32,000 bases of DNA from Opitutia bacterium KCR 482 (GCA_029269845.2 CP149973.1:2070001-2102000), one strand, 5' to 3'; shown: positions 7,818 to 19,057, numbered from the stretch's first letter. Notes: generated from the letters alone by a model not told the origin. Program-made: numbers and translations.

Positions 7818-8786
7818 ATGAAAATTAAAAAAATTGCAATTCTCGACGGATTCACAAGCGTGCGCGACGACCTCGACTGGCATTCTCTCGACGCCATCGC
7901 CGAAGTCTCCGCCTACGACAGAACCCCGCCCGCGCTCGTCCTCGAACGCTGCGCCGACGCCGACGCCGTGCTTACCAACAAGGTCGTTCTGAACGCGGAG
8001 CATTTTGCAAAACTGCCGAACCTCAAATACGTCGGCGTGCTCGCCACGGGCTACAACAACGTCGATTTGAAAGCCGCCCGCGAGCGCGGCATCGACATCA
8101 CGAATATTCCCGCGTACAGCACCGACAGCGTGGCGCAGTCGGTCTTCGCCCACATCTTGAACATTGCCGAAATGACCGAACTCCACGCGCAGGCGGTCTG
8201 CCGCGGCGAGTGGACAAGCTCGAAAGACGTTTTCTTCTGCCTCGGCAGCCTCACCGAGCTTGCGGGGCTTACAATCGGCATAATCGGCTACGGCGCGATA
8301 GGGAAAGCCGTAGCGCGGATTGCAAAGGCGTTCGGCATGTCCGCGCTCGCCTACACGCCGCGCCTTAAAGTCGGCGATTCCGACGCAAACGCGACGTTCG
8401 CAAGCCTCGACGACATCTTCGGAAAATCCGACATCGTGAGCCTGAACTGCCCGCTCAACGCCTCCACCGACCGCATAATAAACGCAGAAAACATCGCAAA
8501 AATGAAGGACGGCGCGTGGATTATCAACACGGGGCGCGGCGGGCTTGTCGACGAGCAGGCTCTCGCCGACGCCCTCAAAAGCGGGAAAATCGGCGCGGCG
8601 GGCGTTGACGTGCTGTCGTCCGAGCCTCCGCCGTCGTCGAATCCGCTCATAGGCGCGCCCAACTGCCGCATTACGCCGCACACGGCGTGGACAAAGTTTG
8701 CCGCCAGAAAGCGTCTGATAAAAATCGCGCGCGACAATCTTGCCGCGTGGGTTGCGGGAAAGCCCGTAAACGTAGTTAATCCGTAG
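7818..8786 (+). CDS. NAD-dependent D-2-hydroxyacid dehydrogenase (glycerate dehydrogenase / hydroxypyruvate reductase-like)
   Basis: Rossmann motif GIIGYGAIGKAVA; catalytic region NTGRGGLVDE ... ITPHTAW. I prefer the MKIKKIAIL start (ATG 7818) over ATG 7797. Confidence 0.8.
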   Translation: MKIKKIAILDGFTSVRDDLDWHSLDAIAEVSAYDRTPPALVLERCADADAVLTNKVVLNAEHFAKLPNLKYVGVLATGYNNVDLKAARERGIDITNIPAYSTDSVAQSVFAHILNIAEMTELHAQAVCRGEWTSSKDVFFCLGSLTELAGLTIGIIGYGAIGKAVARIAKAFGMSALAYTPRLKVGDSDANATFASLDDIFGKSDIVSLNCPLNASTDRIINAENIAKMKDGAWIINTGRGGLVDEQALADALKSGKIGAAGVDVLSSEPPPSSNPLIGAPNCRITPHTAWTKFAARKRLIKIARDNLAAWVAGKPVNVVNP

Positions 8787-8847
8787 ACGCCGTTCGGAGC
8801 GGACGGACGCGGACAATTCGGAATAGGGGGGAGCGGCTCGTGCCGAA

Positions 8848-9273
8848 TTGAATGTTTCGCAGACTTTCGTTCTCGACTTTCGAAAGACGGCCAGCGCGAA
8901 TTTGAGCATTGCTTCCTCCGCAGTGCTTACCGTCGCCAGCTGGTATGTGCACGAAAATATTGCCGATACCGCCGCTCCAACAGCGGTTGTTTTGAACGAC
9001 TTTGTTTCCAACAGCATTTTTCTCGCCGATTCGGCAATTACAGCGTACGACATTTCCGACGACGGCGTTTTGAGCGTATCGTATACCCAAGGCACGCAAG
9101 TGAAGAGGCAGAATTTCTCGTTCCTCGACAAAAACGGCGACATTATCGCCATGAAGCTTGTTGACGGCGTCGGCGGCAAATACCTCTCGACAGCGATTCC
9201 CGAACCCGCCGAATGGGCGGCGGTTTTCGGCGCGCTCGCCTTGGGCTTTGCGGTCTGCCGCAGAAGACGCTAA
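8848..9273 (+). CDS. PEP-CTERM domain protein fragment (141 aa) lacking a signal peptide; possible 5'-truncated gene remnant
   Basis: C-terminus IPEPAEWAAVFGALALGFAVCRRRR matches PEP motif + TM helix + basic tail. The tail region is paralogous to the C-terminus of the 26747-28615 protein. The only in-frame start is TTG 8848, there is no N-terminal hydrophobic leader, and an in-frame stop lies just upstream. Confidence 0.5.
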   Translation: MNVSQTFVLDFRKTASANLSIASSAVLTVASWYVHENIADTAAPTAVVLNDFVSNSIFLADSAITAYDISDDGVLSVSYTQGTQVKRQNFSFLDKNGDIIAMKLVDGVGGKYLSTAIPEPAEWAAVFGALALGFAVCRRRR

Positions 9274-9284
9274 AACGCCTTCAC

Positions 9285-9318
9285 GAAAAAAAAGGGGCTT
9301 ATTCAAGCTCCTTTTTTT
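9285..9318 (+). terminator. Intrinsic terminator after the PEP-CTERM fragment
   Basis: A-run, then stem GGGGCTT (9294-9300) / AAGCTCC (9305-9311) with one G-U pair and loop ATTC, followed by T7. Confidence 0.65.
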
Positions 9319-9603
9319 GCGCCTTGCGTCTGTTTTTTTTGAAGAAAAAGCTTGTCAGGCTGAAGTTTATCTACATTCTGTTTGAGAATTGGCGTCAGAG
9401 TGGGGCGCGTTTGATTGGTGGTTCGGGCTTTTTGTGGAGATTTTTTTCTCTGTTAAAAGTGTCGGGCTTAGGTTGGTCAAATCGCAAACCGTTCCGCAAT
9501 TCCCTCGAACAAAGGGTTCAACGGCGTTTTTCGGCGACGTGCCGCGAACGCGGGCTTCGACAGCAAGCCCCCGAAAAATTGCGAACAATAGAAAGAAACA
9601 AAT

Positions 9604-10039: not shown

Positions 10040-12187
10040 ATGGAACAGAAATACAGCGTAGAGGTTAAAGACCTCGGCATAACAATCTCGACGGGAACAA
10101 TCGCAAAACAGGCGAACGGTTCCGTCACAATCAGCTTGGGAGAAACGACGCTCCTCGTCAACGCGACCGCCGCAGGCGCGCTCCGCGACGGGCAGGACTT
10201 CTTTCCCCTTACCGTCGATTACCGCGAAACTTTCTCGGCGGCGGGCAAATTCCCCGGCGGCTACTTCAAGCGCGAAGGCCGTCCGAGCGAAAAGGAAATC
10301 CTCACTTCGCGCCTTTGCGACCGTCCGCTTCGCCCGCTCTTCCCCAAGGGCTTCATGAACGAAGTTCAGGTTATCGGTCTGCTCCTCTCCGCCGACATGG
10401 TTAACGAGCCCGACATTCTCATGGTAAACGGCGCGTCGGCCGCAATGCTCATTTCCGACATTCCGTGGAACGGCCCCGTCGGCTGTATCCGTCTCGGCGA
10501 AATCGACGGCCAGTTCGTCGTAAACCCCACGCACGAGCAAATGCTCGACTCTACCCTCGACCTCATCTACGTCGGCAACGAGCGCGAAATGATGATGATT
10601 GAAGGTTCGGCGGAACAGATTCCCGTTGACCGCTTTGTCGAAGCCCTCGAATTTGCGCAGAAGGAAATCCAGAAGATTATCGACGCGCAAAAGGAGCTTG
10701 CAAAGCTCTGCGGCAAGCAGAAAAAGGAATTTCCGCTCATCGTCTGCAAGCCCGAAATTCTCGACATGTGCAAGGAATTTGTCGGCGGCAGACTGCTCGA
10801 AGCCGTCTTCCAGGACAACAAGCTCAAGCGTCAGGCAGACGTCGACGCGCTCATGAACGAAACCGCCGAAGCCGTCAAGGCGAAAATCGGCGAAGAGGAA
10901 TTCGACATGGCGCAAATCAAAATGGCGTTTGAAGTTCTCCAAGAGGAAGTCTACCGCGAAAACATTCTCGACGCGGGCAAGCGTTGCGACGGCCGCTCCT
11001 ACACCGACCTCCGCCCCATTTGGTGCAAGACCAACGTTTTGCCCCGCGTTCACGGAAGCGCGATTTTCACCCGCGGCGAAACTCAGGCTCTCGTCATGAC
11101 CACCCTCGGCACGAGCAAGGACTTTCAGGAGCTTGACGGACTCACGGGAGGCACAAAGCAAAAGTCGTTCATTCTGCACTACAACTTCCCGCCTTACTCG
11201 GTCGGCGAAACGGGCCGCTTCGGCACTCCCGGACGCCGCGAAATCGGGCACGGCGCGCTGGCGGAACGCTCGCTTCTGCCCGTTCTACCCTCGGAGGACG
11301 AATTCCCCTACGCAATCCGCGTCGTTTCCGAAATCATGGAGTCGAACGGTTCGACCTCCATGGCTTCCGTCTGCGGCGGCTGCCTTAGCCTCATGGACGC
11401 GGGCGTTCCGATTGAAACCCCCGTCGCTGGCATCAGCTGCGGCTTGGTAACGCGCTTCGACGAAAACGGCAAGCTGCTCAAGCACGTCGTTCTCACCGAC
11501 ATCATCGGCGCGGAAGACCATTTCGGCGACATGGACTTCAAAATCTGCGGCACAAAGAACGGCATCACGGGCTTCCAACTCGACCTCAAAATTCAGGGTC
11601 TGCCCATGGACATCGCAAAGGAGGCAATCTACCGCAACCGCGACACCAGAATGCAGATTCTCGACATTATGAAGGCGGAAATCGAAAAGCCGAACGCCGA
11701 GCTGAAACCCACCGCGCCCCGCATCAAGTCTCTTCAAATCGACCCCGACAAAATCGGCATGCTCATCGGCCCCGGAGGCAAGAACATTCGCCGCATAGTC
11801 GAAGTTTCCGGTGCGCAAATCGACGTCGACGACGACAATCCCGGACGCGTTCTCGTCTACGCAACCAGCGCGGACTCCATGAACAGGGCTGTTTCCGAAA
11901 TCGAGCTTGTAACGGGCGAAATCGAAGTCGGCAAGACATACCGCGGCATTGTGCGTTCCATCAAGGAATTCGGCGCGTTTGTCGAATGTCTCCCCGGCAA
12001 GGAGGGTCTTGTGCACATCTCCGAGTTGGCGGACTTCCGCGTAAACAAGACCGAGGACGTTTGCAAGCTTGGCGACGAAATCATTGTCAAGTGCATTGGC
12101 ATTGACGACAAGGGCCGCGTAAAGCTTTCGCGCCGCGCGGCGCTCTGCGAGCAGCAAGGTATACCCTACGAACAGCGTGCAAGGTAG
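10040..12187 (+). CDS. pnp: Polyribonucleotide nucleotidyltransferase (PNPase)
   Basis: 715 aa: two RNase PH-like domains, a KH domain ([15 protein letters not shown]) and an S1 domain ([19 protein letters not shown]). ATG at 10040. Confidence 0.95.
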
Positions 12188-12252
12188 CGCGAGTAGGTAG
12201 CGCGAACCTGCGGGACTTGTTTGTTCCGTAGCAGAGTCATACTCGAAAACGA

Positions 12253-12290
12253 AAGGGGGCAGTACGTAAGTACAGCCCCCTTCCTTTTTC
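12253..12290 (+). terminator. pnp intrinsic terminator
   Basis: Stem GGGGGCAGTAC (12255-65) / GTACAGCCCCC (12270-80): 10 bp plus one mismatch, loop GTAA, followed by TTCCTTTTTC. Confidence 0.65.
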
Positions 12291-12326
12291 TCCGTGTGCC
12301 TCTCCTACGGAAGCAAACCGTACCTC

Positions 12327-12436
12327 GCAGAACCGCGCAGGGATATTTGCGGATTGCCGAGGTTTTTTAATTTTAGTGCGCGATTTCATCGCGCGGTAGA
12401 TTTTGGGTTTTTTTTAGGATACCTGACGGAGGAAGT
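12327..12436 (+). repeat. Copy A of a ~110-bp intergenic direct repeat
   Basis: GCAGAACCGCGC...GCGGATTGCCGAGG...TAGTGCGCGATTTCATCGCGCGGTAGATTTT..T-run..AGGATACCTGACGGAG. Contains the perfect hairpin GCGCGAT-TTC-ATCGCGC (12378-12394). Confidence 0.8.
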
Positions 12437-12682
12437 TGCGGGCAGGGATTTTTTTGTTTTTTTAGGTAGCCTGACGGAGTGAAGTAGGGGGCTGGGGTTT
12501 TTATTTTTAGGTTTTGTTTTTTAGGATACCTCGCGGGAAAAGTTTTGGGGCGAGTGTGTATGTAAATTGGGCAGAACCGCGCTGGGAAGTTGGCGGATTG
12601 CCGAGGGTTTATTTATTTTAGTGCGCGATTTCATCGCGCGGTAGATTTTTGGTTTTTTTTAGGATACCTGACGGAGTGAAGA
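12416..12682 (+). repeat. Four dispersed copies of a 22-mer AGGATACCTGACGGAGKGAAGW, each preceded by a T-run
   Basis: Copies start at 12416, 12464 (AGGTAGCCTGACGGAGTGAAGT), 12523 (degenerate AGGATACCTCGCGGGAAAAGT) and 12661. Spacing is 48, 59 and 138 bp. Each is followed by a G-rich tract. Confidence 0.75.
12571..12682 (+). repeat. Copy B of the ~110-bp intergenic direct repeat
   Basis: Roughly 90% identical by eye to copy A, 244 bp downstream of it. Same hairpin at 12623-12639. Confidence 0.8.
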
Positions 12683-12729
12683 GTTGTGTCTGTGCAGGTG
12701 GCTTCTTTTTATTTTTCAGGTCATATATG

Positions 12730-12762
12730 CAAAAAAACGGAAAGCGTTTTGCTTTCCGTTTT
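12730..12762 (-). terminator. lutC intrinsic terminator (usable in both directions)
   Basis: Stem CGGAAAGC (12738-45) / GCTTTCCG (12751-58). T7 follows on the minus strand (A-run 12731-37) and TTTT on the plus strand. Confidence 0.75.
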
Positions 12763-12774
12763 GTGTGTGGTTTG

Positions 12775-13371
12775 TTATTTTACAATCAGGCAGACTTGGC
12801 AGCCTGGGCCGTGCACGCCCTCCACGAGCACTCCCTCGACGTCGGTCGTTTTTGACGGGGCGGCGACGTATATTGCGTAGGGGCAATCCACCGTCTTTTC
12901 GAGCGCGTCGTATATCGTTTGTTCGATATCGCTTTCTTTCAGCACTGCGACGTGTATCCACGGCGCGATTGTATCGAGTCTGTCGGCGGTATCCTTGTCT
13001 TTTAGCACTATTGCGCCGCTTTCGGCTATTGCCATCGACGCTTTGCTGATTCCGAAGTCGTATTCGTCGGGGTTGTTGCGGTCGAACTCCCTGTCGAGTT
13101 TGAAGAAGTTTTCCAGTCCGAATGTATTGTCGATTTTTGCGTCGGCGACTCCCCGTTTACAGCCCTTGTCTTTGAGGAATGCAACCAGCGCTTCCGCGCT
13201 TTCGACCACGTTTCCGTGGCTTGCCAGAAAGTTCCGCACAAACGCCTCTTTCGGCGTTCCCGCGATTGCGGGGTTCGACACCGTGTCCTCCTTCGAAAAC
13301 TTGGGAAGTTCGGCTTTCGGGCGCGATTTTTCCGCGTCTTTTACCGTGTTTATAAAAGCGTTTTTATCCAT
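12775..13371 (-). CDS. lutC: Lactate utilization protein C (LUD domain, YkgG family)
   Basis: 198 aa. GISKASMAIAESGAIVL...DRLDTIAPWIHVAVL... is typical of the LUD/YkgG family. Overlaps the lutB stop by 8 nt. Confidence 0.8.
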   Translation of the reverse strand: MDKNAFINTVKDAEKSRPKAELPKFSKEDTVSNPAIAGTPKEAFVRNFLASHGNVVESAEALVAFLKDKGCKRGVADAKIDNTFGLENFFKLDREFDRNNPDEYDFGISKASMAIAESGAIVLKDKDTADRLDTIAPWIHVAVLKESDIEQTIYDALEKTVDCPYAIYVAAPSKTTDVEGVLVEGVHGPGCQVCLIVK

Positions 13372-18234: not shown

Positions 18235-18260
18235 CGGCGCGTGAAAGCACCAGTCTAAGG

Positions 18261-18735
18261 GCGTTTCGCGCACGTCCCAGACCGCTTACATACGCCAAGT
18301 ATGCTACGCGCCCTGTGCCGTGCGCAAAGCCGCCCTTATACTGGCACTTTGACGCGCCTAACAAATGAGCGCATGGCGCGGAAGATTTTAAGTTGTGCTG
18401 GGAGAAAAGTTAAATAGAGCGTTTCGCGAGTGTCTCAGACTGCTCGCGTACGTTAGTACGCCACGCACCCTGAGCCACTCGCAAAGCCGCCCTTATACTG
18501 GCACTTTGACGCGCCTAACAAGTGAGCGCATGGCGCGGAAGATTTTAAGTTGTGCTGGGAGAAAAGTTAAATAGAGCGTTTCGCGAGTGTCTCAGACTGC
18601 TCGCGTACGTCAGTACGCCACGCACCCTGAGCCACTCGCAAAGCCACTCTTATAGGGGCATTTTGACGCCCCTAACAAATGAGCGCACGGCGCGGAAGAT
18701 TTTTAGAATGCGCTGGGAGAAAAGCTGGGTTGATT
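18261..18735 (+). repeat. Tandem array: three head-to-tail copies of a ~157-nt element
   Basis: Each copy begins GCGTTTCGCG, at 18261, 18419 and 18576. Copies 2 and 3 are nearly identical. Copy 1 shares the 3' ~90 nt almost exactly and has a diverged 5' ~65 nt. Confidence 0.9.
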
Positions 18736-18738
18736 GGT

Positions 18739-18780
18739 AAGCGGAGAATCTGTGTTTTGGGATTTCCGCTTTTTTATTTT
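18739..18780 (+). terminator. Intrinsic terminator closing the tandem-repeat region
   Basis: Stem AGCGGAGAATC (18740-50) / GATTTCCGCT (18761-70): 10 bp with one bulged G, followed by TTTTTATTTT. Confidence 0.75.
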
Positions 18781-18784
18781 TATC

Positions 18785-19057
18785 CGCGCAAAGCGCGTCT
18801 ATTTTAATTTGTTTCTCGCAAACCAAAAAGATTTTTCAACGCCAGTAATTGGCGAAGCCAATACGGACTAATACAGAAAAGGCGCGGGTATACCCGCGCC
18901 GCTTAATCACTACGAGGAACGAAGTTCCGACGACTGGTGCACCTTGCGCCCAGCCTTGCGGGGAGCGGGTGGAGAATTTTGCAAAGCGAAATCCACCCCT
19001 GGGGGCGAAGCCCCCGAGACCCGACCGGCGCGGCTCGCGCCCGACGCGGCTCGCGTC
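18785..19057. other. Cluster of short perfect GC-rich hairpins with 3-nt loops
   Basis: CGCGC-AAA-GCGCG (18785-97); ATTGGC-GAA-GCCAAT (18848-62); GGAAC-GAA-GTTCC (18916-28); GGGTGGA...TCCACCC (18967-98); GGGGGC-GAA-GCCCCC (19001-15); GGCGCG-GCT-CGCGCC (19027-41); GACGCG-GCT-CGCGTC (19043-57). Confidence 0.8.
18872..18900 (-). terminator. Intrinsic terminator for the PhoD-like gene transcript (about 155 nt 3' UTR)
   Basis: 20-nt perfect palindrome GGCGCGGGTATACCCGCGCC (18881-18900), followed on the minus strand by TTTTCTGTATT. Confidence 0.65.

Follow-up and report, generated by a model that had tools for sequence, protein, structure and literature searches.

The gap between the convergent genes pnp and lutC, in the 32-kb stretch of DNA analysed here (the window), carries an island of repeats, and a tandem array lies about 6 kb further on, at 18.3 kb. 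A first-pass annotation had read the two as rearranged versions of one element family, either dispersed sRNAs or structured elements or non-autonomous mobile elements. Is the island a copy of such a family, or did it arise where it stands?

The closest named PNPase homologues belong to Opitutales MAGs, 'Coraliomargarita sp. CAG:312' (90% identity) and Intestinicryptomonas porci (84%). GC content is 56%, and the strain contigs that carry the island come from human-gut metagenomes. The host is an uncultured human-gut member of the Opitutales (Verrucomicrobiota), an understudied lineage.

Repeat structure and predicted fold of the island

As first described, the gap is gene-free. It contains only short ORFs, the frames of which are not kept among copies or strains. 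The length of the T-runs differs among strains, and two minus-strand ORFs (MKSRTKI..) part after about seven residues because of T-run indels. The minus-strand ORFs do start in the hairpin loop, with an A-rich leader in front, but small proteins were rejected for want of a conserved frame. A tRNA/tmRNA search found none in the island. Rfam 15 gave no match in the window at the gathering threshold, the best models below it being chance miRNA/sRNA models on terminators. Neither the island nor the 18.3-kb array had any match at the gathering and E-value thresholds.

Most of the repeat anatomy described for the island was reproduced. The two bounding hairpins with T-runs are present at 12245-12290 on the pnp side and at 12734-12762 on the lutC side. 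The direct repeat of about 110 bp was recovered by blastn (12327-12435 vs 12571-12681) with 91.9% identity over 111 nt (E = 1.5e-38), and each of its copies holds the perfect hairpin GCGCGAT-TTC-ATCGCGC once (12378-12394 and 12623-12639). The module made of a T-run and a 22-mer occurs four times (starts in Table 1; TRF period 48), and the 16-mer AGGATACCTGACGGAG has three matches with at most three mismatches where 0.05 are expected. Each 48-59-nt module comprises a T-run, a 22-mer resembling AGGWWRCCTGACGGAG and a G-rich loop, and the linker GGGGCGAGTGTGTATGTAAATTGG follows the three tandem ones. The direct repeat takes in, as its block 1, the outer 3' arm of the long hairpin that starts at the pnp stop codon. 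The basic unit has the order long hairpin with its terminator tip, block 1, block 2 (a GC hairpin with a U-tract) and at least one module of T-run, purine-rich 22-mer and G-rich loop. All modules lie in direct orientation, and periods of 48-59, 244 and about 370 bp are nested within the island.

Table 1. Features of the pnp–lutC gap and its flanking genes, in window coordinates
Feature	Position	Strand	Description
pnp	10040-12187	+	left flank of the island
Long imperfect hairpin	12188-12350	+	arms of about 80 nt; begins with the first base 3' of the pnp stop; tip forms the pnp intrinsic terminator
pnp terminator core	12245-12300	+	GGGGGCAGTAC-GTAA-GTACAGCCCCC, then TTCCTTTTTCT; minus strand also reads as a hairpin
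Direct repeat, copy 1	12327-12436	+	block 1 (GCAGAACCGCGC..GCGGATTGCCGAGG), T-run, block 2 hairpin, T-run, 22-mer
Direct repeat, copy 2	12571-12682	+	found by inverted/direct-repeat search and blastn
Block 2, copy 1	12372-12415	+	extended hairpin TTTAGTGCGCGAT-TTC-ATCGCGCGGTAGA (12372-12400), then T4G3T8; intrinsic-terminator-like
Block 2, copy 2	12617-12660	+	hairpin as in copy 1 (12617-12645), then T-tract
Three tandem 48-59-nt modules	12410-12570	+	starts 12410, 12458, 12517
Fourth T-run and 22-mer module	12655-12687	+	start 12655; forms the 5' arm of the last hairpin
Hairpin H3	12666-12721	+	ACCTGA.GGAGTGAAGAG paired with CTTCTTTTTATTTTTCAGGT; 17-bp stem, 5 G.U
Bidirectional lutC-end terminator	12730-12766		AAAACGGAAAGC-GTTTT-GCTTTCCGTTTT; A-run on one side, T-run on the other
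lutC	12775-13371	-	right flank of the island; convergent with pnp

Folding the plus strand of the single-unit allele gave four elements and z = -9 for the whole intergenic region. These are the long hairpin of about 163 nt with its terminator tip and U-tract, block 2, hairpin H3, which pairs the 22-mer with a T-rich arm, and the bidirectional lutC terminator. Positions 1-163 of the intergenic region are paired in the long hairpin, in agreement with the inverted repeats, while block 2 forms a 12-bp hairpin followed directly by U5GGU7. The minimum free energy of 12351-12726 was -115.5 kcal/mol for the plus strand vs -59.4 kcal/mol for the minus strand. With five G.U pairs among its 17, the H3 stem can form only in plus-strand RNA. 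The sequence 3' of the long hairpin is 36% T, 31% G, 18% A and 15% C, with a GC skew of up to +0.56.

Compensatory double changes were found at five base pairs of the inner long hairpin, across strains and paralogues, and GC<->AU compensatory changes occur among strains at two positions of the pnp terminator stem. One-sided stem changes lead mostly to G.U pairs on the plus strand. This fits a plus-strand RNA and would equally fit a C-to-T mutation bias on that strand.

A GC-rich stem-loop followed by a U-tract, the layout of an intrinsic terminator, is predicted at 12245-12300, 12372-12415, 12617-12660 and 12734-12766. Such terminator-like sites are not enriched (3 vs 2.1 in shuffled sequence), which counts against a reading as back-up terminators. 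A scan of both island strands for sigma-70-like promoters found none, and a relaxed scan gave a single 8/12 site, in copy 2; elsewhere, TTGAC-/TAnAAT-like promoters can be recognized upstream of host genes. With no sigma-70-like promoter inside it, the island is read as DNA reached by read-through only. Promoters of the sigma-54 and Bacteroidetes types were considered on visual inspection and set aside when the host turned out to belong to the Opitutales. A dif/Xer site, CIRCE, a Tn3-type inverted repeat, a G-quadruplex and an intrastrand triplex (PMC4666352) were likewise weighed by eye and rejected, the defining sequence features being missing. Neither the block 2 palindrome, as an operator, nor block 1, as a motif, recurs at further sites in the window.

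Shine-Dalgarno sequences are missing at gene starts in the window (e.g. 10040, 9604, 7797), which are preceded by A-rich leaders. In the 2-hydroxyacid dehydrogenase gene (7797) a -10-like TTATAT/TATATT stands directly 5' of the ATG, so the mRNA of this gene may be leaderless.

Variation among strains

The strain set comprised 21 loci, 20 obtained by exact PNPase or LutC protein look-up and one from a scan of JGI metagenomes. The alleles are taken from short-read metagenome assemblies, in which tandem repeats can collapse. Among these 21 strains, with identical PNPase or LutC, the length of the gap ranges from 342 to 1058 bp. At least eight module architectures were distinguished, with one, two or three large units, 48-59-nt modules gained or lost, and chimeric recombinants.

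Alleles were coded with L for the long hairpin tip, 1 and 2 for blocks 1 and 2, m for the T-run and 22-mer module, J and N for linkers, E for the T-rich arm and T for the lutC terminator. The architecture of the window, L12mmmJ12mET, was found in 10 strains and L12mET in four. One strain each had L12mmJ12mET, L12mJ12mmT, L12mNL12mET and L12mmmNL12mET, and three or four strains had three-unit alleles. Every allele starts with L-1-2-m, and every one except that of strain L028 ends with m-E-T. Head-to-tail repeats with a copy number that differs among close strains, as in a minisatellite or VNTR, are thus found in these short-read assemblies.

The three-unit alleles carry a duplicate of the whole long hairpin that is older and diverged. 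Chimeras of the two long-hairpin paralogues occur in some strains and point to recombination between units. The allele class does not track the similarity of flanking SNPs. At 0.021-0.026 per site, substitution diversity in the island is level with the 0.024 of pnp third codon positions. Set against this nearly neutral level, the 28-nt core of block 2 does not differ in any of 41 copies from the 21 strains, with variable flanks; it is unchanged even in the diverged allele of L028, in which the flanks are about 15% different, and block 1 is nearly invariant. As judged from these alignments, the invariance of block 2 hints at a sequence-specific constraint beyond any terminator hairpin.

In three strains (L006, L025 and L033) 13 nt flanked by two GGTAGCGCGA direct repeats are deleted immediately 3' of the pnp stop (CGCGAGTAGGTAG; window 12176-12205), which leaves a shorter outer 5' arm of the long hairpin. 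One assembly (L026, ERZ28613879 scaffold_696) has an N-run inside the island and a last unit without block 2, and the contig of L020 begins inside the island. Copy numbers need long-read confirmation because assemblers struggle at this locus.

Other sites in the window vary as well. Near the 3' end of phoD (18881-18955) the window has one copy of a third structured repeat (GGCGCGGGTATACCCGCGCC .. AATCACTACGAGGAACGAAGTTCCG .. GCACCTTGCGCCC), of which strain L002 has two (about 18830-19000), so this gap is also strain-variable. Upstream of rpsO, the region at about 8240-9600 of the window (8200-9565 in L001-L010) shows a presence/absence polymorphism, with a 291-aa ORF without Pfam matches in some strains, a 116-aa ORF in others and no called gene in one.

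Distribution outside the locus and relation to the 18.3-kb array

Six related species were found to be without the island. In relatives whose PNPase is 96, 95, 94 and 91% identical, pnp is followed by one plain terminator and by other neighboring genes; profiles of the island units gave no match there, and long hairpins are also missing. No copy of the island blocks was detected outside the gap in the 32-kb window or at the 21 strain loci. Across the 185,579 species genomes of GTDB, 20-mers of block 2 and of the 22-mer module had only four unrelated coding matches, a negative that holds if the host species is represented there and unmasked. The same 20-mers found only the same locus and one chance match in JGI metagenomes, and nothing in viral contigs. 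Moreover, the island was assembled straight through in contigs of 40-665 kb, which argues against a high-copy dispersed repeat.

Given that no copies occur elsewhere and that relatives lack it, the island is taken to be young, species-specific and local. Its own repeats are local duplications, with no copy in the window, strain loci, relatives or collections, so the dispersed-family reading put forward for it is not supported. The absence from close relatives, which the first-pass annotation itself had named as a refuting condition, likewise removes the notion of a conserved dispersed family as far as the island is concerned. The island is a young, non-coding tandem/mosaic duplication of the sequence 3' of the pnp terminator, at one locus in one species.

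The ends that a mobile element would be expected to have were also sought, and no terminal inverted repeats with target-site duplication were found. The long hairpin (12188-12350) could pass for the terminal inverted repeats of a MITE; its flanks, ..AAGGTAG and GATTGCC.., show no duplication, and it has no second copy outside the tandem units. The block 2 hairpins at 12372-12400 and 12617-12645 have the form of a REP/BIME palindrome (20-40 nt, GC-rich, extragenic). The tens to hundreds of dispersed copies typical of that class were absent from the window, the 21 strain loci and the GTDB/JGI 20-mer searches. GGTAG lies 3' of the island palindrome, the copies are all direct, and the 32 kb hold no transposase.

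The array at 18.3 kb follows pyrD (18236-18783, the 157-nt array itself at 18261-18724). Among the window and the equivalent sites of strains L001-L008, it varies from 1 to 4 units and its gap from 534 to 1108 bp. A unit combines a constant part of about 120 nt with a segment of about 30 nt that is wholly different among units and strains (at least four versions), and changes on the opposite arm partly match. One promoter-like TTAACT-17-TAAAAT site per unit lies on the minus strand.

Several blocks of the island had been judged by eye to look homologous to the 157-nt unit. One block of about 30 nt survived, a short GC hairpin followed by GGWAGATTTT that is common to both loci, while the other four matches were at chance level. 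Unit against unit, the alignment of AGTGCGCGATTTCATCGCGCGGTAGATTTT with AGTGAGCG----CATGGCGCGGAAGATTTT scored 29.5, a value reached by 1/500 dinucleotide shuffles and by 0/768 other segments of the 32 kb. Formal alignment of the whole island with the array gave no convincing similarity (p = 0.02-0.14). Shared k-mers between island and array were at window background level, and cross-profile nhmmer searches of one against the other gave 5-8 bits, which are background matches.

The claim that the two loci belong to one element family is accordingly retained for the shared module of about 30 nt and for the layout, and dropped for the island repeats, which are not dispersed. At both loci a stop codon is followed within 1-2 nt by a long hairpin and then by a short one, and both long hairpins carry a GTAC-N4-GTAC tip. 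The two are also alike in the AGTG-(GC hairpin)-GGWAGATTTT module and in a copy number that is variable and mosaic between strains. The array differs from the island in its balanced base composition, in its minus-strand promoter-like site in every unit and in a hairpin tip common to a sister species, where nothing of the island is found.

In that sister species (L022, PNPase 94%) a unit of the 18.3-kb type occurs at a second locus, directly after pnp. Tandem long-hairpin units of about 173 nt run from the pnp stop (L022:4415-4680, GCA_965329335.1), and the contig ends inside the repeat. The 34-nt tip GACTGCTCGCGTACCATTAGTACGCCACGCACCC matches the 18.3-kb unit with a score of 56 vs a shuffle maximum of 29 (nhmmer E = 7e-5), while the arms of the L022 unit differ from it; the tip matches the array and not the island. 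Neither the array unit nor the sister-species unit is significantly similar to the long hairpin of the island. The tip match suggests an 18.3-kb-type element that moves from one gene 3' end to another or is recruited there. With the shared module and the related array after the sister-species pnp, a distant common origin of island and array as one element is possible and unproven.

Explanations and known systems

The island belongs to an ordinary class, the intergenic minisatellites, here built of terminator-like hairpins, and is not a copy from a dispersed sRNA or mobile-element family. That it consists of duplicated pnp 3'-end/terminator modules, hairpin and U-tract units of the plus strand that act at most as back-up terminators or as an insulator between convergent genes, is on balance probable. 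The alleles would have arisen by unequal recombination or replication slippage between direct repeats and T-runs. Direct repeats of 48, 110 and about 370 bp would serve as partners in both expansion and contraction, and the long palindrome possibly stimulates either process. Transcripts reading through from pnp would meet a series of hairpin and U-run modules that may act as back-up terminators and as barriers to 3'-exonucleases. Read-through on the lut strand would give a C/A-rich, weakly structured RNA suited to Rho loading. At most, the island would then insulate the convergent pnp and lutABC from each other in both directions, and its copy number is probably near-neutral.

Because block 2 is invariant, two further readings stay alive, an sRNA scaffold and a protein site, which are unlikely even when taken jointly. 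Blocks 1 and 2 might be the conserved 3' scaffold of an sRNA from the pnp 3' UTR or from an unrecognized promoter, composed of a hairpin, a U/A-rich single strand and a terminator hairpin ending in poly-U. Strains with several units would then have two or three paralogous sRNAs with different 5' parts, the dosage and repertoire of which would vary by tandem amplification. An sRNA of this kind would account for the identity of block 2 in every copy, and near-identity of block 1, between variable flanks. The order hairpin, UUUUUUAAUUUU, terminator with U-tract is sRNA-like, G.U-rich stems and one-sided changes favor plus-strand RNA, and a similar short hairpin with GGWAGAUUUU is conserved in all units of the 18.3-kb array. 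Nevertheless, no promoter-like site lies inside the island, a strong pnp terminator lies upstream of blocks 1-2, and no Rfam family matches. The island is also missing from all related species examined, its overall diversity equals that of synonymous sites, and in one assembled allele the last unit has no block 2, which leaves the sRNA rather unlikely. Action through a bound protein is highly improbable. In that case the island RNA would titrate a GGA-binding (CsrA-like) or an A-rich-motif-binding (Hfq-like) protein as a sponge, or block 2, with its perfect 7-3-7 palindrome, would be a DNA operator. GGA occurs 14 times vs 7.7 expected, a count reached by 11/1000 shuffles, but the excess stems from copies of one module, so that the occurrences are not independent of one another. 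GGA is part of the repeated motifs UAGGAUA and ACGGAG, and block 2 is conserved strictly in sequence and not in structure alone. Against this, the CsrB model matches only the pnp terminator (16.5 bits vs a gathering score of 71), the palindrome is not repeated upstream of any window gene, and the island sits at two 3' ends rather than at a promoter.

The island and the 18.3-kb array could also be degenerate clusters of one REP/BIME- or MITE-like hairpin family that targets sites just after stop codons, the present tandem structure being secondary. A long hairpin lies 1-2 nt after the stop in three cases (pnp, pyrD and the sister-species pnp), the 18.3-kb-type tip occurs in two species at different loci, and both window loci have one module and the GTAC-N4-GTAC tip in common. 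The mosaic, strain-variable make-up also resembles that of BIME and BOX clusters (PMC3333891, PMC3049150). Such a family is distinctly unlikely as an explanation of the island, however, the blocks of which were found at no other locus in the collections searched. Its long hairpin is not significantly similar to the array or sister-species unit, its modules are all direct instead of alternating, and the hairpin ends have no target-site duplication. GTAG lies 3' of the palindrome here but 5' in REPs, and the 32 kb hold no transposase or RAYT gene. It is very unlikely, too, that copy-number variation is mainly an assembly artefact, with one multi-unit allele present in all strains and collapsed to different extents. 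The repeats (71 nt at 96% and 110 nt at 92% identity) are indeed longer than common k-mer sizes, one scaffold has an N-gap within the island, and one contig starts inside it. Nevertheless, the same lengths turn up again across independent samples and assemblers (342/343 in four cases, 583-587 in eight and 958-960 in three), and the junctions and diverged modules of L001, L006 and L028 cannot be derived from any path through the two-unit allele.

Under the favored reading of local duplication, an uncultured human-gut Verrucomicrobiota lineage builds strain-variable hairpin arrays at gene 3' ends. The island can be used as a strain-typing marker and is a warning that assemblies break or collapse here. 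It also offers a natural allele series for how stacked terminators or 3'-UTR hairpins tune pnp vs lutABC. The island would matter more if the conserved cassette were a functional RNA or a protein-binding site. Markedly unlikely is the further idea that the block 1-block 2 cassette and the AGTG-hairpin-GGWAGAUUUU module of the array form a 3'-UTR-derived RNA family of gut Opitutales. If this were true, the RNAs would begin with a long hairpin, right at the stop codon of a housekeeping gene, and tandem amplification and recombination would reshuffle a strain-variable regulatory repertoire and not neutral junk.

Like the REP/BIME clusters of Enterobacteria, the island is a gene-free mosaic of short GC-rich palindromes and linkers at 3' ends, with a strain-variable make-up, and such clusters, too, often sit between convergent genes. 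REPs have hundreds of dispersed copies, alternate in orientation in BIMEs, carry GTAG on the 5' side and are linked to RAYT. In contrast, the island has one locus only, direct orientation, GTAG 3' of the hairpin and no RAYT in the 32 kb. REP325 (yjdMN) acts as a partial terminator and mRNA stabilizer (bioRxiv 10.64898/2026.03.23.713779; PMC3333891). By analogy with the action of REP/BIME clusters in E. coli 3' UTRs, the island may have a matching role. The BOX elements of S. pneumoniae consist of boxA, a variable number of boxB units of about 45 nt and boxC; they have extensive secondary structure, are co-transcribed with neighboring genes and are restricted to one species group (PMC3049150). 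The island resembles them in that its 48-59-nt modules vary in number between conserved end modules. BOX elements are found at >100 loci and look like parasitic mobile elements, whereas the island is at a single locus.

Tandem intergenic units of 40-100 bp, differing in copy number among near-identical strains, are common to the island and to MIRU/VNTR loci, and in both the variation probably stems from slippage or unequal recombination. The MIRU units of Mycobacterium tuberculosis form a family at about 40 loci and often overlap short ORFs. Unlike them, the island has nested periods and terminator-like hairpins in each unit. Classical tandem terminators such as rrnB T1-T2 consist of two unrelated hairpins in fixed number. 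As in rrnB T1-T2, successive hairpin and U-tract units of the island stand 3' of a strongly expressed gene, where they are predicted to limit read-through into the convergent gene; unlike those of rrnB, the island units were duplicated recently and vary in number.
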